NCBI GenBank assembly: GCA_964016885.1
Contig: OZ024751.1
Span: forward strand, 51,770,001 to 51,834,000
Reading direction: 5' to 3'
DNA: 64,000 nt
Source of the DNA: Eledone cirrhosa
Lineage: Eukaryota
Under the pieces are notes generated by a model. That model ran no database searches. It was not told the origin of the DNA and saw nothing but the letters and a program-made list of their open reading frames with translations. The position numbers and the translations under genes are program-made. The stretch's first letter is position 1. Each line of letters begins with the position of its first letter. Shown piece by piece: positions 84 through 47,748 of the stretch.

Positions 84-752
84 ATGCTGCAGCTGGGCAT
101 TATTCGCCCATCTACGAGTCCTTGGGCTTCACCGTTACACATGGTGCCCAAGACTTCCGGCGACTGGAGACCCACTGGGGATTATAGGATGTTAAATGCC
201 ATGACCGTCCCGGATAGGTATCCCATTCCCCATATCCACGATTTTGCATCTTCACTGCAGGGGTGTAAGATTTTTTCTAAGTTAGATTTAGTGCGAGCCT
301 ACCACCAAATTCCGGTCAGGAAGGAGGATATTCCGAAAACGGCGATTACAACCCCTTTCGGATCATTCGAATTTTTTACCATGCCTTTCGGACTCAGGAA
401 CGCCGCTAGCACTTTTCAGCGATTCATAGACGAGGTCACGCGTGGTCTGGACTTCGTTTATGCTTACATAGACGATATTCTCGTCGCTAGTTCCTCTCCA
501 GAAGAGCATATGCGCCACATGCTTCTCTTATTTCGGCGACTTCAGGATTACCGCGTTCGCGTGAATCCTGCAAAGTGTGTTTTCGGTTCCACTTCCCTAC
601 ATTTTTTAGGCCACCTCATCGACGCCGAAGGTATTAGACCGCTCCCTCAGCGAGTTCAAGCCATACAGGAGTTACCTCCGCCTACTACACTTCACCAGTT
701 GCGTCACTTCTTAGGCCTAATCAATTTCTATCTTCCCTTACTGACATTTTAA
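84..752 (+). pseudogene. Gypsy reverse transcriptase domain, frame broken near 731
   Basis: [53 protein letters not shown]. The usual RRFIP segment is missing and the frame continues in another phase as [11 protein letters not shown]. Confidence 0.9.
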
Positions 753-784
753 AAAATCGTCGTAAGAAGAATGAAGACATTTCC

Positions 785-2542
785 TTGACACACGGACAGC
801 TTCAGGACTTCCAGTCTGCCAAGACAGCACTCGCTAGTTCTTCTTTGCTAGCCCACCCGGTACCAGAGGCCAAGCTTTCGCTTTGTGTCGATGCATCTGA
901 TACCGCTGTGGGAGCAGTTTTACAGCAGTCTTACGCTGAAAACCAACAACCTTTGGCATTTTTCTCGAGGAAGTTGAAACCAGCAGAAACGCGTTATAGC
1001 ACGTTTGGGCGGGAATTATTAGCCATATATCTGTCGGTGAAACATTTCTCTCATATTCTTGAGGGGAGAAATTTTACGGTTTTTACCGACCACAAACCGT
1101 TGACCTTCGCTTTGAGGGCCAAGGCCGACAGATATTCGCCCAGAGAGACAAGGCACCTGGACTACGTTTCACAATTTACAAACGATATCCAGCACATTGC
1201 CGGCTCGCACAACATAGTTGCAGACGCATTGTCACGTTTGCCAATTAGCTCCATCTCGTCATCCCAGGAGATCGACTTAGGTCGTTTAGCTGCAGACCAA
1301 CCTGCACTCCAATCGTTGGACACTCTTTCTACTGAATTTGCGACTTGCATTTTCAAATACCTGCCCTTGTCCACCACCGACAGGCAGATTCTATGTGATG
1401 TATCTACTGATGCACCACGACCACTTGTTCCTGAGACTCATCGTCGAATTGTGTTCCTGGCTTTGCACAACATTTCTCATCCAGGATCTGCTGCCACAGT
1501 TAAACTCATAACAGCCAGATTCTTCTGGCCAAATATGAGGCGCGACATTGCTGCTTGGTGCCGTTCCTGTATCGCTTGCCAGAAATCAAAGATCCATAGA
1601 CACATCCGGACTCCACTTGGTACTTTCAGTACTCCAGATGCTCGGTTCCAACACATCCACATTGACATCGTTAGACCTTGGCCATTCAGCAGTGGATATT
1701 CTTACATATTGACGTGTGTGGATCGTTTTTCAAGGTGGCCTGAGGCCATCCCTTTACAAGACATGACGGCTGAGACTGTAGCACGTGCCCTGGTATCAGG
1801 GTGGATTACCCGCTTTGGGGTACCAACTACACTCACCACAGACCGTGGTAGACAATTCGAGTCCCATCTCTTCTCTGAGCTCACAAAAATAATTGGAGCT
1901 CAACGGATTCGGACCACAGCCTATCATCCTGCTTCAAATGGAATGGTGGAACGATTCCACCGCCAATTAAAGGCCGCTCTTCGCGCCTATCCAGACTCTC
2001 AACGTTGGAGCGAGTACCTTCCTATTGTGTTATTAGGAATTCGGTCATCAATAAAGGAGGACCTTGGGTTCTCCCCGGCCGAATTAATTTACGGTGCTCC
2101 TCTAGCGTTGCCTGGGCAAATGCTTGCCCCGGTTGATCTTGCTTTCCAAGATCCGCTTTCCTACGTATCCCGTCTGCGTTCTTATTTTCAGGACCTGCCG
2201 CCGATGAATACGAGGAAGCAAATTGTAAAACCTGCGGTCCCGAGGGACATTGCCTCGTGGACCCATGTGTTCGTAAGGAACGATGCTGTGAGACCACCCC
2301 TCACACAACCATACTCTGGACCCTACCGTGTGTTAGCACGCACTGACAAACATTTCACTGTAGACGTTAAGGGGTCCAGAGAGACAATTTCGGTGGATAG
2401 ACTGAAAAGGGCACACAATGACGCTCATACACCCGAGCCACAAATACCCCAATCTTTCTCTCTTGTGCATACACCTGCTCTTTCTGCCCCACCTTCACCT
2501 ACATACAAAACTACGACCCGTTCCGGTCGGAGAGTCCACTAG
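785..2542 (+). CDS. Gypsy RNase H + integrase (HHCC, DDE, GPY/F)
   Basis: [35 protein letters not shown]; H..SHPG..C..C zinc site; HIDIV / TDRGRQF / GMVERFHR; PYSGPYRV. Confidence 0.9.
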
Positions 2543-14241: not shown

Positions 14242-18550
<4,309 letters not shown>

Positions 18551-23732: not shown

Positions 23733-25420
23733 ACACACAATTGTAAATAATACTCAGAAATAAAAATAAAATTTTAATTTTTAATTCAATGAAACTGGAT
23801 ATTTACCAGTCAATGAATATGTTTACTGTTAAAAAATATATTCATATCACATTGAGAAAGCAATTATTTAAATGCAATATGTTGTTATATGTTATCATTG
23901 TAAAATGTTTAGTTGGGTCACAGTTGCTGCAACAGCCTTATTCTACTTGTTAAGTGGTTTTATATAACAAGCACAATCCACTTCAGTTGTCAGGAAAGTT
24001 ATTGTATGAGCTGACTTGCATAACAGTAATGGCCTAGTTAAATAGTTGTTGTAACTAGTTTGATTACAACAATACTAGAAACACTAGTTTTCATTACAAT
24101 TTCATTAGGTAGAGAAAAATGAAATTTACAGATCACCATTTATATGTAGGTTTAAGCAAGCCTCCCATGAGGTTGCAGCTTATAGAAAGTTTGTTTCTTG
24201 GGTGTTTTAATGACTCTAGTCCTAACATGAACAGCAACATGAAATGAAATGTGTCATCTAAGAACACAACACATCACCTGGTTCAGGAATTGAACCAACA
24301 ATAAATGATTGCGAATCCAATGCCTAAACCACTCGACCAGATACGTTTACACTGTGTAGAAGAATCATACTGACTGTTTTCAAAGTACAACAGACAGGGC
24401 TTGAAATTTCAGCATTGTAAGGAGAAACAGAAAGTGAATTGGACAATGTACGTGTCTTATTGGCCAGTGCAACAGTCACAATGCACAGTCTTAGCTCAAA
24501 CACACAATCTCCTGAGTAGATAGAACATAAGGACTGACAGCTTTGCTCAACTAAAATAGTAGACACTAATATATAATACTTTGTGTCTGGAATCAACAAA
24601 ACTTGCAATTTAACCAATTGCTTTCACCAAATTACATGTGTACAAACCTAACAATTTATAAATGATTAGAAGTATTAAGATAGAAATATTAAGTTCAGAA
24701 TGTTACAGTTCAAAAAGAAATGAAATGAAGCATCTTGCTATTTAAAGTGGAGAAAGTTTCTGTTTTACTTAGTTTTAGCTTCTTGTTATTGCTGCCAACT
24801 TGTGATGAGATAGGGATATTAATGCTGACAGTGATTACAGTAAACAGAGATTATAGTTTGGAACTGCTATTTCTCAAGACAAGATAAATTAGAACTCTTT
24901 ACTATTTAGCTTCTCACCATCCAGGAAACAGCTGTCAAGGACCATAATCCAAGTGTACCCAACCATATCGCTCCTTCAACTTTATTCGTTTGTTTCATAT
25001 AGTCAAGATGCTTCATGAATCCATCCTATATTAAAGAAAATAGAAAATATTGTATAATAAAACGAAAAATTTTGTTTAAATATATATATTTATAGGCGTG
25101 TATATGAAACCATATATTATATACATATATGCAATAAACATATGAGCCTCACTATCAAATAAATATTTTTTTCATTATGAAAAAATTATTTTCCTCTCAT
25201 TTGCTCTGTAAACATGTCCCAGATATCTCAGTAGCCGTTGAGAATGCCAGACAGATGTTTCAAGATTTGTTAATCTCTCATCAGTGACATTTACTCAACT
25301 GTTACTGAAACGAAAATAGACTATAGACTATATAGATTTTGCATGGTGAACAGAAAAAAATATTTTTCCCATTGAAATGAAGGAGGGTATTCTATAAGGA
25401 GAGGAGCAGACACTACAACC

Positions 25421-25926
25421 CATCATCATCATCATCATCAGGTTTAGCGTCCGTGTTCCACGCTTGCATGGGTTTGGACGGGGGTTTTCCCACTTGAGGC
25501 AAGAGTGGTTGTCTTGCTCGCATAGGACTGTCTGGCGGGTTTTCTACAGTTGGATGCCCTTCCTAACACCAACCACATTTACAGTGTGGGGCTGGGAGGT
25601 TTTTACCGTGTTGCCTACACGGCCACATTACAGCGTGGACTGTCTGGCGGGTTTTCTACAGCTGGATGCCCTTCCTAACACCAACCACATTTACAGTGTG
25701 GGGCTGGGAGGTTTTTACCGTGTTGCCTACACGGCCACATTTACAGCGTGGACTGTGTGTTTTTTGTCGTGACACCTACACGATCTCATTTGTTTCGGCT
25801 TGGATGTTGTGGGACCAACATAACTTTACATTGAAAGGGGCGGTGTGGGTGGGGTGGAGGTGGTGGGACGGGGGTGTGTTTTGATAGAGATGCCTACTGA
25901 CTGTAGTAGGTTTTTACTTTGTATTT
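25421..25926 (-). mobile_element. RTE LINE 3' UTR-only copy, subfamily A, with internal tandem duplication
   Basis: Near-identical to 62207-62598 and the reverse complement of 57085-57468; the block around 25525-25750 is repeated twice. Confidence 0.85.
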
Positions 25927-28900
25927 AGTTGAGTGTATTCTATAAATTTACCAAAGGATCAAGCAACGAAAGAAAGGGAGAGTGGGGGCAAACACCACAC
26001 CCCTGTTTGAGCCAGGGAACAAAATGGTAAATGTGTTACTGCGGAGAATGGCAAGAGACACCCACCCTTTCCGATTTTAAGGAGGAAATAAGCATATCGT
26101 CGGTGACAAGCATTTTCTTCTACACTTATATCACCTTCATCATCGTTTAACGTCCAGTTTCCATGCTAGCATGAGTAAGAGGCAAGTTGGGTCGGGTGAC
26201 TGTGTCTCGCTCATATAGGACTCATATAGATAATACATTTTTATAAATAAGATTTGCGTGAGACACCTTTGTCTCCAGTGAATTGCGTGTATAGCTGAGG
26301 ACGTGGGTGTTGCCTGTCAAGCTCATTGTGGTGGATGAATTTTAAATTGTTAACATACTACTCATTTCGCTGATGTTTTAGGATGAGAGAAGTCATGAAG
26401 TGTGTCATTAATACATTCTTCAAAAGAATAACAATTGTTTCTACTTTGGGCACAAGACCAGCAATTATCCCAGTGCATTACTGGTACTTTATTGTATCGA
26501 CACCGTAAGGATGAAAGGCAAAGTTAACCTTGACGGGATACGTGGCAAATAAAGCGGAAGGAAATTTTATAATCTATTAAATTAGTATATTTCAATTTTT
26601 TTTTTAACTAAGAGTAATTTTATCATCCATTTAAGGTTGATAAAAAAAAGTACCAGTCTAGAACTGGTGTCGATTCTTCCACTATATCTCTTTCTCACAC
26701 TCTTTCTAGCTTTCTCTGGGAGAAATCTGTTGTATTCAGACTTGGAGAGGGGTGGGCTCCGTCAAGTTTTAAAAAAGAAACGTCGTGTCTCATACGAGGT
26801 CTCTAAAATTTCCTTACGAGTCACGGGAACCATACATACAATTTTGATTAAATTATTAAATTTGGGATTCTTATACTAGTTGAGTACTTGGGGTCGATTC
26901 TTCCTCTATAGAAAAAAATCGGCTGTGTTCAGACCTGGAGAGGGTTGGGCTCCGCCAGGTTTAAATGTGGGTATTGCGGTGCCTCTGCGACTCCACAAGG
27001 AGTTATGGGATCTTTATCCCTTATACTAATTGACCTTCCGTTTCAAAAACAAAGTCAACACGGCTAGATTTGAACGTAAAATGTTGGCAGCTGTTTAATT
27101 GTTGGAAATTTTACACAACTTACGTAAACAGATAGTGGTGATAAAGTTTAGAGGAGAAACGGAAATTCGTGACAAATTTCTATTTTATTATATTTTTAGT
27201 AAAATAAAAGTTGACTCACAGAAAGAAGTAAATAATAAATATTGAGTGTATAAACAGTGCGAGAGAGACCTAAATCCGGTTAAACAATAAACTGAAGCCT
27301 ACTTTCAATTGGATGTTGAAACTTCATACTGTTTGTTTTAAAGCCCTTCCCCATGAGCCATCGAGGGGGGCTTCTACAATAGCAACCATCTCCTTTAAAT
27401 TACACAACAGTCCCTTTTGAAACTTGAGGCTCGGTTAAATCATAATCTAATAAAATGAAAGTATTACTTGAGTTTCGATTAAGGCGCCACGTCATTTTAT
27501 ATCACTAAAGAAAATGAACTATCACCCTCAACCCACACATCTTTAAAAAGAAGAGCAGACCTATTATTTATTATCTATAATTATAACGTCAAGAATAAAA
27601 AGTAGACGGGATGGTAATAGGAGTGTTTGAATAAGATTGACCTAGGGAAAAACATCAACCAGATCTCTTTCTATATATATATAATAGTACTAATATTATA
27701 ATAATATTAATGGGAGCAAGTAAATAACAGGGTGTTATAACGAAGGTCATGCAAAACTGTTATATATAAACTAGCTTATGTATAAACTATTAATGTATGT
27801 GTGTGTGTGTGTGTACAGTGATGGGGCGAGTATTTTCATTTTCTTCAAAAGCAATCCTACTGTCGATGATACACGAGACAAGTAGAAGCTGAGTAACAAA
27901 ATAGACATTAATTGTTTCTACTTTTGGTACAAGGCCCAATTGCCCAGTGCATTACTGGTACTTTATTTTAATAAGGCTTTCGTTGAATAAATGTGTTTCC
28001 GTTAATTCGTAAAAAGAATTTTGGTTTCCTAACACAGATACTGTCGGAAAAGCAGAAGAGGTTGTTGACAGCTGATGAGTTATCTTCTAAACGGATTTGA
28101 AACAATAGTTAAACCACATCCATCATGAGAGAGAGAGCGAGAAAGAGAGAGAGAGAGAGAAATCAAAGAACGCCTACATACTCATACAATTTTTATTTGC
28201 TGAAAATATTTCATCCATGCCGTGGGGCAGGAATCATCAGAGCTTTATAAACAAAAATACAGTGCTGAGTATAAGCTCTACCAAGCTTAGTCACATGAAC
28301 ATTAGATATACAGTACACGCTGCGTTGTCTACGTAAATATGTATATAGATATATATATACTTCAATAAAAAGATGTGTGTTCTTTTATTTAGTGACTAAA
28401 GTTGTTTAGTCTCAGGTCAGCCAGGACAGTCGAACTCTGATAAAAAGTATTCCAGTTACGACCATCCCATTTTATTTTCAGATTTTATATGCAGGACTAC
28501 ATTATATCTTATACACCATTCCCATTTTTTTTAGATGGTAGTAATGGGATGATTTAATTGATATTTCTAGCATATCGAGGACCACATAGAAGTCCCCTAT
28601 TGACAAAAAGGCAACACATTTTTTAAGGATAAGAATATATCGTTGATCAAAACCGATCCGGTATATCATATTTATTTTACTGTGTCTGGAACGTACGAAA
28701 TTAAGACCAAGAGAGATGTAAACTCGTAATATAAAGAGACATAAATAAACACCAAGTAGTTTTTCTCTGGCGCCATAGTGACATTACATTATGCATATTG
28801 CTTCACAACACTTTGTTTAATTAGAATATATATAATGTATATCATTTGGATCATTAACACAAACACACAAATACTAAAGTTTGAATAATAAATATTTATT

Positions 28901-29308
28901 TACAGATAAAATTGCTGATGCATTTAGTAATTTAGTTATATACTGTTCGTCGCTATATTAATTTATAAAGAATAAACATTTTTTCTGTTATTTTCGTGAT
29001 TTTTCAAGAAAATAAACTTTTATTCATGAAGTAAATACACTTTTTTCTTCTTTTTAAGTATGACCAGCTGTGTACATTAGAGCCCGATATTCTAAATAAT
29101 TCTTTTGTATAGAAAAAAATACGATGAGATGAATCGTTCACAAAAATAATGCAATTGTTAACTAAATTAAACTTCTGCAATCATCGTTTTAATTGTTGTA
29201 TCTATTTTTTGTTTAATTTAACAAACTTAACAGGAAGACTAACGATATGTATATAATATAGTTATATATGTGTGTGTGTGTATATATATATATATAAATA
29301 AACCTTAC

Positions 29309-29821
29309 CCATCCGCCATGATCGTTTATCCAAACATCGATCTTCCTGCATCTAAACATTTTCAACAAGATATGGTTATACTGTTCCCATGAAAGCTCCT
29401 GACGCTTTGAACGTTGATCGTCGACCAAAACGGCCAACATAGTGAAAATCATACATAAACGACTCCAGTGAAAATTTTCACGATCATCCAGAATGGACTC
29501 CACTACATCGCTGTAGGCTTTTTCTATGGTCAAATCTTCATTAACTTCGTTTAATAACTGAGAAGCATTTTTTAACAAGGTTTCTTTATATGTATTATAT
29601 ATCTCTAATATTGTTTTTCTCATACATACAATAATATCTGAGTCAGGTGTCGAAACAAAGTGCCCGTTCTTAAAATTAGAAACGACGTCTTTGATAATTA
29701 ATGAAATTAGTTTTCGAATCGACTTCAATTCTACTACAGTGAAGTTTATTTCAGTGGACATTGGAGACATAACAGACATTGAGTTAATATTACAGAAGAT
29801 ATTCGTCAAAACAGAAGCCAT
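29309..29821 (-). CDS. Divergent Bcl-2-family protein, main coding exon (Mcl-1/A1/Bcl-B-like architecture); unspliced read-through would stop at 29213 (202 aa)
   Basis: Kozak aagATGG at 29821. BH1-like SILDDRENFHWSRLCMIF (cf. NWGRIVAL) and BH2 WINDHGGW, immediately followed by the donor TGG|GTAAGG (intron from 29308), the intron position known in BCL2/BCL-X/MCL1. The downstream exon was not located. Confidence 0.85.
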
Positions 29822-30440: not shown

Positions 30441-33205
30441 TCAGGTGTAGTTTTGGCGTATTTCGGGAAGCATGAGTGTCTTAAAGGATGCAGTGTCTCG
30501 GCAGCTAACAACTGACGCAGGCAGTTTGTTCCATGCTTCAGCAACTCTGAGCGTGAAAAAATGTCTACGAAAGTCATGGGAGCTATGTTGTTTTCTGATC
30601 TTGTAGGCATGTCCACGTGTGTTAGACACATGGAGATCAAAGAGGCGCTCAGGGTTGCAATTGGCGAGATGGTTAAAAACTTTGTGGGTATTCACCAAGT
30701 CCATTGCCAGATGTCGGAGCTTCAATGAATCCATGCCCAGGGAAGCAAGGCGTTCAGAGTATGGTAGGTGTCTGATGGAGGGTATGCGCTTGGTTGCACG
30801 TCTCTGAACAGTTTCCAGGAGGTCAATATTCTGAGCAAGATAGGGGTTCCAGACTGATGATGCGAATTCCAAGTGTGGTCGTACCATAGCTGTATACAGT
30901 TTTAAATAGATGGCTGGAGAGCGGCTAACAAAGGTCTTGCTGAGTGATGCCAAGACACCCTCGGCCTTCTTGACAATCTTAGAGACATGCTTTGTCCAAC
31001 GCAAATCGTTGCTGACAGTAATGCCCAGGTCACGTTCACAAGAGGACTTTTTGATATCAGTGTTGTGGAGGGAGTATGTGGACGCTGGATTTTTCCTTCC
31101 AAAATGCATGGTGGTACACTTGTCCACAGCCAGCTTCAGTTGCCAGTCTGTGATCCATTGCTGCATTGTGTCCAGGTCTGATTGTAGGAAAGAGTTGTAA
31201 ATTTCAGGATCAGTCCTTTTGATTTCAAGGTACAGCTTGATGTCATCTGCATATTTCAGTACCGTGGCATTCTGTAAGTTGGCATCTATGTCATTAATAT
31301 ATGCCACAAACAAAAGAGGACCAAGAACAGATCCCTGTGGTACACCAGATGACATCTCATATGGTGAAGAATGCTGTCCTAGAACCGTCACTACTTCTTT
31401 TCGGCTGAGAATGAAGGATTTCAACCAGTCGAAAAGATCATCCCTCACACCTATTGCAGAGAGTTTTGCCATAAGTCTTTTGTGTGGCACAGAATTAAAA
31501 GCCTTAGCAAAGTCAAGGTAAACAACATCCACCCATGAGCCGCTGTCAGTGATCCGGGTGATGTCCTCAAGGAACTCGATAAGCTGATCACAGCAGCTGG
31601 AGTTAGGGATAAATCCAAACTGTGAGGGCCGGATGAGGCTGTGAGAGCTCCAGAAGTTCCAAAGTGTTTCTCTGACACAGGATTCCATCAGTTTGGCCAT
31701 ACAGCTAGTAAGACTGACTGGACGATAGTTGACAGGTGACATGCGGTTGCCCTTTTTGAACAGGGGAATGACACTGGCAGTTTTCCACTGCTCCGGAGTA
31801 GCACCATTGTTGAGACAGTATTGAAAGAAGAAAGAAAGCTAGCGCAAAAGGAAATACCTGCCACGTTTGAGAAGCAGGTATGTCACACCATCAAGACCAG
31901 GGGAGGCATAGTTGCGCTTATTCTTAAGGTGACGTCGCAACATTGCAGGTGTAAATTCCATAGTTGTTATGGAATTTGATGTTAGAGATGGTGGAGATGG
32001 TACATTCTGGTTTTCAACAGTAAAAATACTTGCATAGCACTCAGCAATGAGTTCTGCGCATTCCTTGGGATCGTCAGTGATCTGGCTTGTGTGGGGATTG
32101 CGAAGAGGACCAACTGGAGAGTGAGGTCTCTGCCTTGAATGAACATATTTCCAGAACACCTTACTGTCAGGATTGGTTGCGATGCACTCTTCAAATTCAA
32201 GCACTGCCTTCTTTGTCACTTGCTTGAGATGGTTAGAAGATTTATTCCGCTTTTTTCTGTTGGCATCTGATTTATGCAGTTTATATTCCCGTTCAGCGTT
32301 CCGACGTTCTTTCCTGGCAAGTCGGACCGCTGAAGTTTCCCAAATTGCACTTTTGGGGTGGTTATTTTTCCGCTTCCGTGGCACTGATGCTGCACACGCT
32401 ATCCATATTGAGTCCAGGATGCTCTGGAGTATAGTGTTCACATCTCCAGAGTTATACATCTCATGCCAGTTTGGGCGCTGTAGCTCAGTGCAGTACAAGT
32501 TCCAATCCGCCCTCTTCCAATCAAAGCAAGCAGATTGGAGATGGCTCTGGTTTTTGTTGCTGCCCTCAAGTGCCAGATTGGCAATGATCATAGCATGATC
32601 AGAGTCGCCTAGAGGTTCCTCAGTAGTACAACTGATAACCACTTCAGGAGTAGTGGTGAAGATCAGGTCCAAAGTGTTGTCACCTCTTGTTGGAGAGGTG
32701 ACTACTTGTGACCAGTTTGAGTCCAGCACTAGTTCAAGGAAATCGTTTGCACCTTGTGGCCAACGAAAGGTTTCCCAATCGATCTCAGGATGATTGAATT
32801 CACCTGCAATAAACACATAAGTGGCTGTTTTCTTGACAGCAACTCTGAGGATATCGCAAAGCTGTGTGTCCTGATGGTAGTTTGGGGGTGCGATAAACAA
32901 CACCAAGCAGAAGTGTTGACATGGTCATACGTATGTCACAGAAAAAAACTTCTTCCTGTGATTCGTTCAAATCAACGCAAGGAATTACCGAAAAGTTTGA
33001 ACGAACGTAGACCATCACCACCACCACGGCGGTTAATGCGGTCCTTGCGGAAAAGGTTGTACCCAGTAATGCTGAAAACCCCATCACAGAGTAAGGAATG
33101 TGCCCATGTTTCCGTGACTGTGATGAAGTCGGGGTCGATGCTTCTGACGTAGGATTCGAACAGATGTATCTTGTTGCATAAACTGCGAGCATTTAAGGAC
33201 AACAA
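30441..33205 (-). pseudogene. CR1 ORF2: AP endonuclease + reverse transcriptase, frameshifted
   Basis: LSLNARSL, TVTETW, GVVYRTP, PTRG.NTLDLIFT, SDH; NYRPVSLTS, DVVYLDFAKAFNSVPH, GVPQGSVLGP, YADD, RDLGI, VRPHLEF, VQRRATK. Confidence 0.92.
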
Positions 33206-42471: not shown

Positions 42472-44427
42472 CCAGAGTAAGAATTATGAACAGCCTGTTT
42501 CGTCAGCTTGCTAAATTGTAAATTAACATGACGTTCCTGTCGAAAATCTATTTTCGAGTTAACGTTTCGCTTACTATCAGATACAGATTGAGAAGGAAAC
42601 GCATGCAATAATGAAAGTATTATAAAATAAAATTGATTTTTTTTTTTTATTTATTTAAATTTCAACTACATAATAGTAATTTACATCTTCGAAAAAGAAT
42701 TTTTGGAAAAATCTCACAAAAAAAAGGCAAACACAAAAAACCCGCATTATTAAGAAATTGATGCGGTACCAAAATCGACCTCAGTGAGAGAAGGAGGATA
42801 TGGCACATACATAGATAGATACACGTAAACATATACATGCATACGTAACTTGTCACGTGCCAGTGTGTCACGAGTTATCGTTCTTAATTGTTTGGTAGAA
42901 TTTGTCTTTGGTTGGTGTTTTTATTCATATATATGTCTTCCAAGCAACACATTATTATACTCTAACATTTTATATCAACCGAAAGGAATTTATACATCAT
43001 TCCTCCTTTACACAATCAATTAAAAGATAATCATATAACATATGTAAGTTGATTTGCTATTTTATAATTTGTATTTTAAATATCATATAGCGGCTATTAT
43101 ACATTTTGTATTTTGACAACCCACCTGCTTCGGTATGTCATTTAATATTTTTTGTATTTTTTTTTTTTTTTTTTCCTTCTAACTTTTTTTAACTATTTCA
43201 ATATTGAATGGAAATAGCTTTCAAGTGTAACTATGTTCGAAAAAAAAAAGTATAATTCTATTTATGTTATGTATGTACGTTTTTAAATTTAATTTTGTAA
43301 ATCAAACTTATTACCATATTTTCTGTTAATATGTATTATTATCCTAATATCTACCACCCTTTAAATATAGCTACGATTTATTTTCATTACTATTCCTTTT
43401 TTTTTTTAGAGAGATTCTATCTTAAAATCCTTAGCGATAAGGAACTAAATTAAGTTACTAGGAATTAAAAACCTTGTTTTGTCCGATCCACTTTTTACAC
43501 ACACACCTTGATATAACAACTTTTAGATCCGTTTTTGACGTGACCTGTTTTACTTATTCATCAATATATATATTTCTTTTCTTTGTGTGTTGATCGTTGT
43601 CTGATTACGAAACTGGGAAATTCTATGTATTTTTTATTTTATTAGATATTTCATTTGTAAAGAAAAACAAACATTTTAGATTCTTCTTTGTGTGTGTGGG
43701 TGTTTATTTTTTGGTGGTGGTGTGTGTGTGGGGGGGGGGTCAAGCATTCCAACAATGACCATCTTGGTCTTTGTTGGTGGGGGATGGATACATCTAGGAT
43801 TACATAGTCAGTGTGTGCTTCCATTTTTTAAGAAGACAATGTGATTTGAGGGAGATTTGGTGGCTATTTCTAACAAGTCGAGGATAGAGTATGACTTGAG
43901 AGAGATTTGGTTGCTATTTCTAGCAAGTCGTGTTATCTCATAGAAGCTCCTTTTTATCTGTCAGCCAGCCCCTTGTCCGAAGTCATAGCGTGCTCAAAAG
44001 ACACAAGCAACAAGATACCCCTAGCCCTCTACAAGGAAAACATGTAAAATGGTAATAGATAGATTTTAGATTCTTTATGTTTCATCCTTACAACCTGTCT
44101 TACATCTTCCTAAACTGTAATAAATTGCTACTTTAGTAGATAGTTCGATACTGAAACGATGAAGAAACAAAGGTGATTTACTATCATTATTATCTACGAT
44201 CTGAGTTCAAATCCCGCCGAGGTTGACTTTGCCTTTCATCCTTACGTGGTCGATAAAATAAAGTACCAGTAATGCACTGGGTAATTGCTGGCCTTGTGCC
44301 TAAAGTAGAAACAATTATTATCTATTTGCTTCCTTGAGTAGAATTATAATTTAAACAACCAGGAGAACGATGTTAAGATCCAGGAAACCTTTCATTTATG
44401 AGCTGTTTCTGAATCTCTACGAAACCT

Positions 44428-44945
44428 TAACCCTTTTGTTGCCGTATTTCTAATGAAATGTACCGCCATCATCATCATCATCGTTTAACTTCTGTTTACC
44501 CAGTTAGAGTTGGACAAGTTGTCACAGACTATGTCAGTACCTAATTGGAGCTACTGCAAGAGAAACGCCAGTCAATCATGGCTCCAACACAAAGGAAGTC
44601 ATCATGCATTCGAATTAATTTAATTAATGAAGGATTTATTAAAATTGTAAGTTATTTAGATGGTTAAAAGGGGCAGTATTGGTTCCGACTCTCTACATTC
44701 TGAATTCAAATCCCGCCGGGGTTAACTTGGCCAAGTACTGGGGCTAATATAATCTGCTTCCTCTTCCCACTAAATTGCTGCCTTTATGCCAAAACTAGAA
44801 ACGTTTTATTTTTATGGTATTTGTAACTTAACAGAAGGTTCTTATATCAAATTATGCTAGATTATAATTTGAATAGAAACCCTTTAAAATACCTTTTTCG
44901 TAGAACCAGAGGTTGTTTTGGGTGGGTTGGTATCAAAAGGGTTAA
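44428..44945. mobile_element. Second piggyBac-type MITE family with nested SINE pieces (decayed inverted copy ~58815-59255)
   Basis: TTAA|CCCTTTTGTTGCC ... GGTATCAAAAGGG|TTAA. Confidence 0.65.
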
Positions 44946-45932: not shown

Positions 45933-46324
45933 GTAAATAAAGATATATTACAAAATTTTCTCTTGAATCTAATTTTTAAGCCAAAGAGCAACAATTTTTA
46001 ACACTTTTAAGATGGGTTGCCCAATCTATTAACCCTGCTAGTTTTGTGTGTTGAAGAAAGTAAATCTTTTCAAGAATTATATATTAGATGCAGTTAAATT
46101 ATTAGTTCTGGTTAAAAGGTTTGAATTGTGTTTGAGTTTAATCTGTGTTATTAATGACTTTTCACCACTATGACCTCTCTTAAATATTCCTAAACTTTAA
46201 TATATTGCAAGAAATAATGTAAGCTTCATTTATATTCTATATTGTTATTCTATTTCTTTCTATGTTTTGCAGTGTTGACATTTGAATATTGTGTGAAGAA
46301 TATATATAATATATATACACATAT

Positions 46325-46600
46325 ATGTCTGGACAAAATTGTTACGCGTGTTCTTCACAAATGGCTAATCCACCTGAACCAAGTATGATGATTGAAGTTG
46401 CAAATCCTGGAAATAGTTCCGAATCCAGTCCAGATGTTGACTTATATGACCAATGTGGTCAGATTCTCCGTCTCCTGGGCGACAGTTTCTATTGGATGAC
46501 CTGTGGCAGAAAACTTCAGCTGATTGCTGATAAGTTTCATTGCGTACAGGTATTATTCCGCTTAACCTTGCAGGATGCCTTGACCCGTTCACAAATTTAA
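46325..46600 (+). CDS. Candidate BH3-only protein with two tandem BH3 motifs (BMF-like); may splice out after 46549
   Basis: Strong acceptor (TTTCTTTCTATGTTTTGCAG|, exon from 46273) and in-frame stops before the ATG. P/S/E-rich N-terminus, then CGQILRLLGDSF (46454-46489) and CGRKLQLIADKF (46502-46537). Possible donor CAG|GTATTA at 46550. Confidence 0.75.
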   Translation: MSGQNCYACSSQMANPPEPSMMIEVANPGNSSESSPDVDLYDQCGQILRLLGDSFYWMTCGRKLQLIADKFHCVQVLFRLTLQDALTRSQI

Positions 46601-47748
46601 CTATGGCTGTGAAATTTTTTTATTTACAATTTTTTTTATTTTTTTTTTTATACTAAATCTATTAGGGCATTTGTATATGTAACAAAGAATATTAAGGTAT
46701 ATATATATAAAAAAAAAAAAACACACTTGATTTAATACTGTCATACAAATATTGAGATGTAACAGTTGTCTGAAATTGTTAAAATAGAGATTATTGGTTA
46801 AAACAGTTTAAAATATATACACAACACATATATTAGTTGAAAAAGCATTGCCTTGTCAAATTGTTTTTTTTTAAGGACATTTTTGTTGCTGAAACACTAT
46901 CCTGTGACTACTTGATTAAAAGAGAGAATGTTGTTGGTAAATTTTGGCATTTACTAGTTAGAAAATAGTAAAATGGATATTTTATTCAAAGAATAAATAA
47001 TATATGTATATGTGTGTACGTGTGTTTGTATGTATGTGTGTTTGTGTGTACATGTGTTTATGTATGTATTTGTAATATGTACACATAATTATATTCATAA
47101 GGCGATGCCCCATGTGACATAAACACTCAATACTAAATTTTACAGTTTTATTTGTTAACTGCTCTGTGATATTTAAAATGTCCTATATTTATTTGCATTA
47201 TTTTTAGTGATACTTTTTTAAATATTTTTTTTTTAAATTTATTTAAATACTTTCAACTTGAACAGCTGCCAACTCTATATAAAATACAATTTTATCCTGT
47301 ATTAGCATTCTGCTTAGATATTGTCAGCAGAGTGTCCACCATATAGTGCATACATGCATGTTCCCTACACATAGAAAAAAGTGTTCTAGAGAAATAGGGC
47401 AGCTTAGCTTTCAACGACTAACTGTAGTCTCCTCTACTGTCTCTTCATTAATTATTCTTCTGATCTCCTTCCCTCTTCTTCCTCTCCTAGAACTCTTACT
47501 AAACCTCTTTACTCGGTCCTCCTTCTCTCTAAGTTTCTCTTCTGTTAGAAATAAAACATTATCTAGCTAACCTCATCCAGTTGTTCATGTTCTTCTGACA
47601 AGAGGATGGGGAGAGTTTACTAAATAATAAAAAAGAAATCTACATATAATATTGATCATCCCACTCCACTTCCTTGCATAATATACTCTGATCAACAATC
47701 TAGTCAAAATACAGACTCAAAACAAATTGAGTCACTGAGCCTGAGATA

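Follow-up and report, generated by a model that had tools for sequence, protein, structure and literature searches.

A candidate BH3-only protein of octopods with two tandem BH3 motifs, encoded head-to-head with a divergent Bcl-2-family gene

The BH3 motif is short and known to give false positives; it is recognised by four hydrophobic positions, a Leu and an Asp, and two BH3-like motifs have been predicted in Hrk and Nr4a1 (PMC6927658). According to a 2014 review, mouse Noxa (Pmaip1) stands alone among BH3-only proteins in having two BH3 regions (PMC4905168), which are thought to derive from a tandem duplication (PMC4905168; 10.64898/2025.12.08.692849). In the 'double-bolt' arrangement of Bim and PUMA, two segments of one BH3-only chain bind the same partner, the second being a C-terminal membrane-binding sequence (PMC6414199, PMC10185343). 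The oyster has a Bax/Bak-type effector pathway that works through BH3-dependent contacts, and the same 2017 study treated a BH3-only protein, which had not been identified in Mollusca, as an open question (PMC5550854). A 2022 survey considered BH3-only proteins 'potentially present' in Lophotrochozoa (PMC8998228, section 2.4), and the legend of its Fig. 5 lists candidates from Octopus bimaculoides, oyster, scallop and limpet. The accessible text of a 2024 paper treats BH3-only proteins in general terms only (PMC11463336), and for the bobtail squid the accessible text of PMC9389742 names only Bnip3. For the other papers named in this paragraph, too, our statements follow the accessible portions of their text.

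We analysed a stretch of 64,000 nucleotides from Eledone cirrhosa (the window) that contains a 91-amino acid open reading frame, running from ATG 46325 to TAA 46598-46600 as a sequence-only reading of this DNA had claimed. Its length lies within the 54-198 range for BH3-only proteins (PMC7022251). The BH3-only class itself is known; what would be new is the close packing of two BH3 motifs in one exon. The resemblance to mouse Noxa lies in a small BH3-only protein (103 aa in Noxa) with two BH3 motifs and in a Noxa cluster (0.83) in the Atlas list described below. However, mouse Noxa is described as a whole-gene duplication with its motifs on different exons (PMC4905168, accessible text), whereas the octopod motifs share one exon and are separated by a 4-residue linker. 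The octopod pair is also kept in three octopods and a more distant relative, with no detected sequence homology to Noxa and no p53 site found. EGL-1, the Hydra and schistosome BH3-only proteins and the computational candidates in Fig. 5 of the 2022 survey are similarly short, with BH3 on a single exon, and are predicted to be disordered, as is the N-terminal third of the octopod protein, but tandem BH3 motifs go unmentioned in section 2.4 and the figure legends of that survey (PMC8998228). As in Bim and PUMA, two putative binding segments lie in one chain; unlike theirs, the second octopod segment is a full BH3 consensus. Among the papers listed in the literature searches, which left most subscription journals outside, none described the octopod protein or a tandem BH3 with a 16-residue offset. 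The O. bimaculoides candidate of the 2022 survey may be the same protein, which would then perhaps already be listed there.

The features of the window are collected in Table 1. The acceptor that the sequence-only reading had placed before 46273 is present; from there to the start of the reading frame no ATG occurs except 46325 itself. The 42501-43000 stretch is CpG-rich (17 CpG, observed/expected 1.45) and is followed by a GTAAGT donor, making it the best candidate for a predicted promoter and non-coding first exon; the donor scan gave an alternative candidate at 44647. Four sequencing runs behaved as genomic DNA, with contigs continuing across the predicted donor and repeats at high depth; they contain no joint for the predicted intron, which counts neither for nor against splicing. 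A genome search gave one real copy of the tandem-BH3 reading frame, and the next-best matches, at E 3.56 (with an internal stop) and E 4.2, were judged to be chance. Further reverse transcriptase-like fragments were seen by eye at about 55-57 kb and 59-63 kb, and about 4 kb at roughly 14400-18200 is a near-pure TA-type repeat with a GC content of about 5%.

Table 1. Positions of the candidate tandem-BH3 gene, its Bcl-2-family neighbour and other features of the window
Feature	Position	Strand	Basis
LTR retrotransposon pol fragment, RNase H and integrase domains	638-2542	+	Pfam
Predicted exon 2 of the neighbour: rest of BH2, hydrophobic tail, stop	24906..25025	-	Acceptor scan and translation
Exon 1 of the neighbour, a divergent multidomain Bcl-2-family gene; BH1 is HWSR; ends GGW, then GT donor	29309..29821	-	PF00452, 33.1 bits (cut-off 31.4)
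Endonuclease and reverse transcriptase ORFs of LINE type, lying between the neighbour and the tandem-BH3 gene	30441-32924	-	Family scan
Predicted promoter and putative non-coding exon 1, donor GTAAGT at 43044	42501..43049	+	CpG content and donor scan
Pyrimidine tract and acceptor AG (46271-46272); predicted exon start 46273	46250..46272	+	Sequence
Candidate tandem-BH3 BH3-only protein, single-exon ORF	46325..46600	+	ORF and orthologs
N-terminal CxxC (C6, C9)	46340..46351	+	Invariant in 4/4 sequences
P/S/E-rich variable segment, predicted disordered	46361..46453	+	AF2 pLDDT <50; most substitutions here
BH3 motif A, CGQILRLLGDSF(Y), C44-Y56 (C44, L48, L51, G52, D53, F55)	46454..46492	+	Sequence, conservation, docking model
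Linker YWMT, four residues, fixes the 16-residue register	46490..46501	+	Invariant in 4/4 sequences, no indel
BH3 motif B, CGRKLQLIADKF(H), C60-H72, BMF-like (C60, L64, I67, A68, D69, F71)	46502..46540	+	PDB matches, conservation
Tail 72-82, moderately hydrophobic, possible membrane-targeting segment	46538..46570	+	Mean hydropathy 1.2 over 11 residues
Candidate poly(A) signal, first AATAAA past the stop	46992..46997	+	Sequence

The protein carries two tandem BH3 motifs offset by exactly 16 codons, as had been proposed, and both show the BH3 hallmarks of four hydrophobic positions, an invariant Leu, and a small residue with Asp. A strict BH3 pattern, composed after the motifs had been seen, matched only these two places among the 127,996 six-frame codons of the window, and two such matches were present in 2 of 100,000 shuffled proteins. 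A looser pattern matched two further, unrelated places in the window. Compared with itself without gaps, the protein matches best at lag 16 (score 38, reached by 1 of 2000 shuffles), and the lag-16 self-matches of the two Octopus orthologs were reached by 0 and 1 of 2000 shuffles. A third repeat at +32 was dismissed by eye, the spacing between Leu and Asp being wrong. The motifs follow the P/S/E segment that had been described as disordered-looking, and 21 of the 31 residues from 13 to 43 are indeed P, S, E, T, D, Q, N or G. Behind them, the tail is too weak for a transmembrane helix (best 19-residue window 1.0).

The sequence-only reading had also cited a 48-nucleotide period in the DNA as evidence of internal duplication. 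At lag 48, 20 of 39 bases are identical, where synonymous resampling with only the amino acids kept predicts 21.1 ± 1.9 (P = 0.80), and codon-shuffled reading frames equalled the lag-48 match at some lag in 494 of 500 cases with a 36-nucleotide window and 251 of 500 with a 42-nucleotide window. The period is therefore no separate DNA evidence. Internal duplication retains its support at the protein level, in the lag-16 match and more clearly in the distant relative described below, whose two motifs share 8 of 13 residues with a self-score reached by 0 of 1000 shuffles, but finds none in DNA identity. If the repeat did arise by duplication, it would be old enough for its silent sites to have been randomised.

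A word-index search yielded one candidate and one match, the O. bimaculoides entry UniRef A0A0L8HHP9, which is 91 aa long, uncharacterized and 78% identical (71/91). Two O. vulgaris predictions, CAI9733864.1 and CAI9733865.1, fall in the same cluster, with lengths of 91 and 79 aa; the full-length one is 75% identical to the window protein (68/91) and has 86 residues in common with its O. bimaculoides counterpart, so that the window protein probably belongs to a separate octopod lineage. The 79-aa prediction starts at M13 and is thus without the CxxC. The gene had been thought probably unannotated; orthologs are already predicted in two Octopus species, though only as uncharacterized proteins. 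Residues 44-71 are unchanged in the three octopods: none of these 28 columns varies, whereas 23 of the 63 others do (Fisher P = 5e-5), and an invariant run as long as this was obtained in 25 of 20,000 shuffles. On its sequence conservation, the locus is a conserved octopod gene.

When 1.84 billion cluster representatives were searched exhaustively at E <= 0.001, two matched: the O. bimaculoides protein and a distant relative (P0006; E 6.8e-10, 39-41% identity to the window protein) from a Logan cluster of two members, on 15 and 2 short contigs. P0006 has the two motifs at the 16-residue spacing, joined by the YWMT linker, and an N-terminal CxxC as well. Its motif A retains C44, L48, L51, D53 and F55, all residues of that motif being invariant in the three octopods, and L48, D53, F55, L64, A68, D69 and F71 are invariant in all four sequences. 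The h1 position is Cys in both motifs of the window protein, with Tyr instead in motif B of P0006. P0006 and the window protein are identical at 11 of 14 BH3-role positions versus 8 of 18 others. The flanks of the CxxC vary while the CxxC itself stays, and it could bind metal or sense redox. An extra N-terminal 36 residues of the sequence P0007 resemble intron read-through; since the first Met of P0006 is Leu in P0007, the true start is probably the Met aligned with 46325. No longer homolog was found among 410 candidates, and a metagenome scan for the protein gave none from 240 pattern matches. The sequence-only reading had asked for an orthologous reading frame with conserved L and D in related species, and it is found with both motifs in two Octopus species and P0006. 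With two matches in 1.84 billion representatives, the lophotrochozoan scope first given to the protein is too wide, and its range so far appears to be the octopods and the lineage of P0006.

All similarity scores were weak (E 0.14-1.3; Atlas scores below 0.9). Motif B had four PDB matches at E <= 10, all of them BMF BH3 peptides (8iqm_B, 8iqk_B, 5tzq_C and 2vog_B; E 0.14-0.45) with 9 of 13 residues identical. The five PDB matches of motif A were myosin light chains without the Asp and were treated as chance, as were WD40, Brat and metallo-beta-lactamase matches; in matches of this sort D53 or the BH3 register was missed or several weak repeats were summed. Among the matches listed in the Atlas, seven clusters were named, comprising BMF (three rows), PXT1, Noxa, Bim and Bik, at scores of 0.78-0.85, which, being below 0.9, are leads only; a search with residues 36-91 among clusters without names reached 0.78 at best and was uninformative. 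At E <= 10, Pfam returned no family for P0001, P0003, P0005, P0006 or P0007, and the PMAIP1 (Noxa) profile was not matched. The BMF profile PF15185 gave no match either, and genome-wide searches with the BMF and Bim-BH3 profiles missed the tandem-BH3 locus. The description of the second motif as BMF-like thus holds for motif B alone; there is no PF15185 match, and motif B of P0006 is less like the BMF peptide. BMF itself has one BH3, whereas the likeness of the octopod protein is limited to one of two. Orthology to BMF or to Noxa is not supported by these sequence comparisons. A PF00452 match was also absent, and the protein appears to be without BH1, BH2, BH4 or a Bcl-2 helical bundle, its 91 residues being modelled with a single helix.

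AlphaFold2, run with four sequences, predicted coil over residues 1-36 and one helix over 37-88, at low overall confidence (pLDDT 53.5, pTM 0.23); residues 1-9 and 11-35 were coil with pLDDT below 50, and the helix had a modest pLDDT. Residues 36-84 were then modelled with two copies of the exon-1 protein of a Bcl-xL-like gene of the same genome (L003), without the helix after GGW. BH3 with Bcl-xL is a textbook pair, and peptides and disordered chains lie outside the calibration of the tool, so the complex score of 0.68 may show likeness to solved BH3:Bcl-xL structures and not binding. Three controls, two with swapped partners and one with a swapped receptor, gave at most 0.11. Of solved pairs, 51 of 78 attain the 0.68 mark, and of mismatched pairs 2 of 108 (39 of 65 and 2 of 126 for eukaryotes). 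The runs agreed in at least 62% of contacts, with a partner pLDDT of at least 64. In the model, motif A occupies the Bcl-xL-like groove in the canonical register, with D53 on R92 of NWGR, G52 on G91, R92 and A95, L48 on L82, and F55 on F49, G91 and V94. Confident contacts numbered 149 in run 1 and 141 in run 3 (partner pLDDT 79) versus 68 in run 2 (pLDDT 64). Interface residues were printed for motif A only, and the extra contacts in runs 1 and 3 would fit motif B in a second groove.

Taken together, conservation, the BMF-peptide match of motif B and the canonical docking model argue for the BH3-only reading, and we put the probability that the octopod protein acts as a BH3-only sensitizer at roughly 0.72. 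On this proposal, the gene would be transcribed from a first exon near 43 kb, and the protein would have a disordered N-terminal arm (1-35) ahead of the predicted helix over 37-88. Both motifs may be used, each of which would become helical on entering a pro-survival Bcl-2 groove, and neutralisation of the pro-survival proteins would free Bax/Bak-type effectors. The weakly hydrophobic tail may bring the protein to membranes. This proposal does not explain why the YWMT linker and the CxxC equal the BH3 residues in conservation.

The invariant linker suggests that the register of the two motifs matters. In an ideal helix, an offset of 16 residues places the face of motif B 24 Å along and about 160 degrees round from that of motif A (128-192 for 98-102 degrees per residue), so that a 1:2 complex with two Bcl-2 molecules bound simultaneously would be possible. 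We therefore propose, tentatively and at well under even odds, a bivalent BH3-only protein in which one continuous helix with two full BH3 epitopes on near-opposite faces clamps or cross-links two Bcl-2-family molecules. These could be two pro-survival proteins, or one pro-survival protein and one effector.

Potential partners are encoded in the same genome. A genome-wide profile search found PF00452 over the cut-off at three of four matched loci, besides the neighbour gene in the window. L003 encodes a Bcl-xL-like protein with its best PDB matches to Bcl-xL, and L004 reads as a second full BH3-BH1-BH2 exon, apparently Mcl-1-like; there are two partial PF00452 matches besides these. Another Bcl-2-family exon, with THSR in BH1, lies at about 30.9 Mb of the contig that holds the window, roughly 21 Mb distant (L005, 1459-1761, minus strand). 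The neighbour itself (24906-29821, minus strand) lies head-to-head with the tandem-BH3 gene, 16.5 kb upstream. It has the marks of a multidomain Bcl-2 gene, namely PF00452, an intron after GGW and a tail on a separate exon, the join of the exons being predicted; its position agrees with the conserved intron site at GGW given in the accessible text of PMC8998228. The neighbour lacks a clear BH3 and was missed by the genome-wide PF00452 search. No homolog scored in a word-index protein search (0 of 17 candidates), and the gene is possibly fast-evolving or unannotated. Ten open reading frames were scanned between the two genes, a scan in which small exons could be missed; two encode LINE reverse transcriptase/endonuclease and eight belong to no family. 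The chance of such proximity, calculated post hoc with 5-10 Bcl-2 genes assumed, is about 0.6-1e-4 by distance and 0.3-1e-3 by gene rank. No p53-type site was found between the two genes, and neither of the two loose p53 matches in the window is near the tandem-BH3 gene.

The main competitor of the bivalent arrangement is a BH3-only protein in which one motif binds a groove and the other copy is a membrane-targeting or second-site segment, as are the C-terminal sequences of Bim and PUMA. Since this arrangement falls within the BH3-only reading, its probability overlaps with the one given above; we regard it as somewhat unlikely. The printed interface of the model involves motif A only, motif B runs directly into the hydrophobic tail, and second, non-BH3 binding sites are described for Bim and PUMA (PMC6414199, PMC10185343, accessible text), but L, D and F are invariant in both motifs of all four sequences, the match to BMF peptides belongs to motif B, and the contact counts of 149 and 141 against 68 fit a second docked groove, although residues were printed for motif A only. 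A real gene whose product binds a target other than Bcl-2 through an unrelated amphipathic helix repeat is, in our estimate, improbable. It would accommodate the absent family match, the weak E-values and the conserved non-BH3 features CxxC and YWMT, yet conservation in P0006 concentrates on BH3-role positions, and the BMF-peptide match together with the partner-swap and receptor-swap controls speaks against it.

Marginally less probable still is a groove binder with a role outside cell death, or one dedicated to the divergent head-to-head neighbour. The proximity of that gene, with only retroelement or family-less reading frames in between, and the failure to find a p53-type site between the two genes would suit such a role. 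A Ser at the Gly position of NWGR may, from mutagenesis of Bcl-xL, narrow the groove, and the BH1 of the neighbour has Ser at exactly this position, which counts against a dedicated pairing. A chance reading frame with no gene is largely refuted and very improbable: the reading frame is short, single-exon and set in an AT-rich, repeat-rich region, but three octopods have it intact at equal length, and a relative at about 40% identity preserves the frame.

On the BH3-only reading, the gene is a concrete and conserved candidate, open to tests with peptides, for the upstream layer still missing from molluscan mitochondrial apoptosis. The protein would be a cell-death trigger of a kind without experimental demonstration in molluscs in the literature searched. 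The motif pair is held in a fixed register across species, which suggests a use for both motifs; the protein may be a natural bivalent inhibitor of Bcl-2. If the bivalent reading is true, octopods would have a molluscan BH3-only protein together with a binding geometry that has no description in the literature found.
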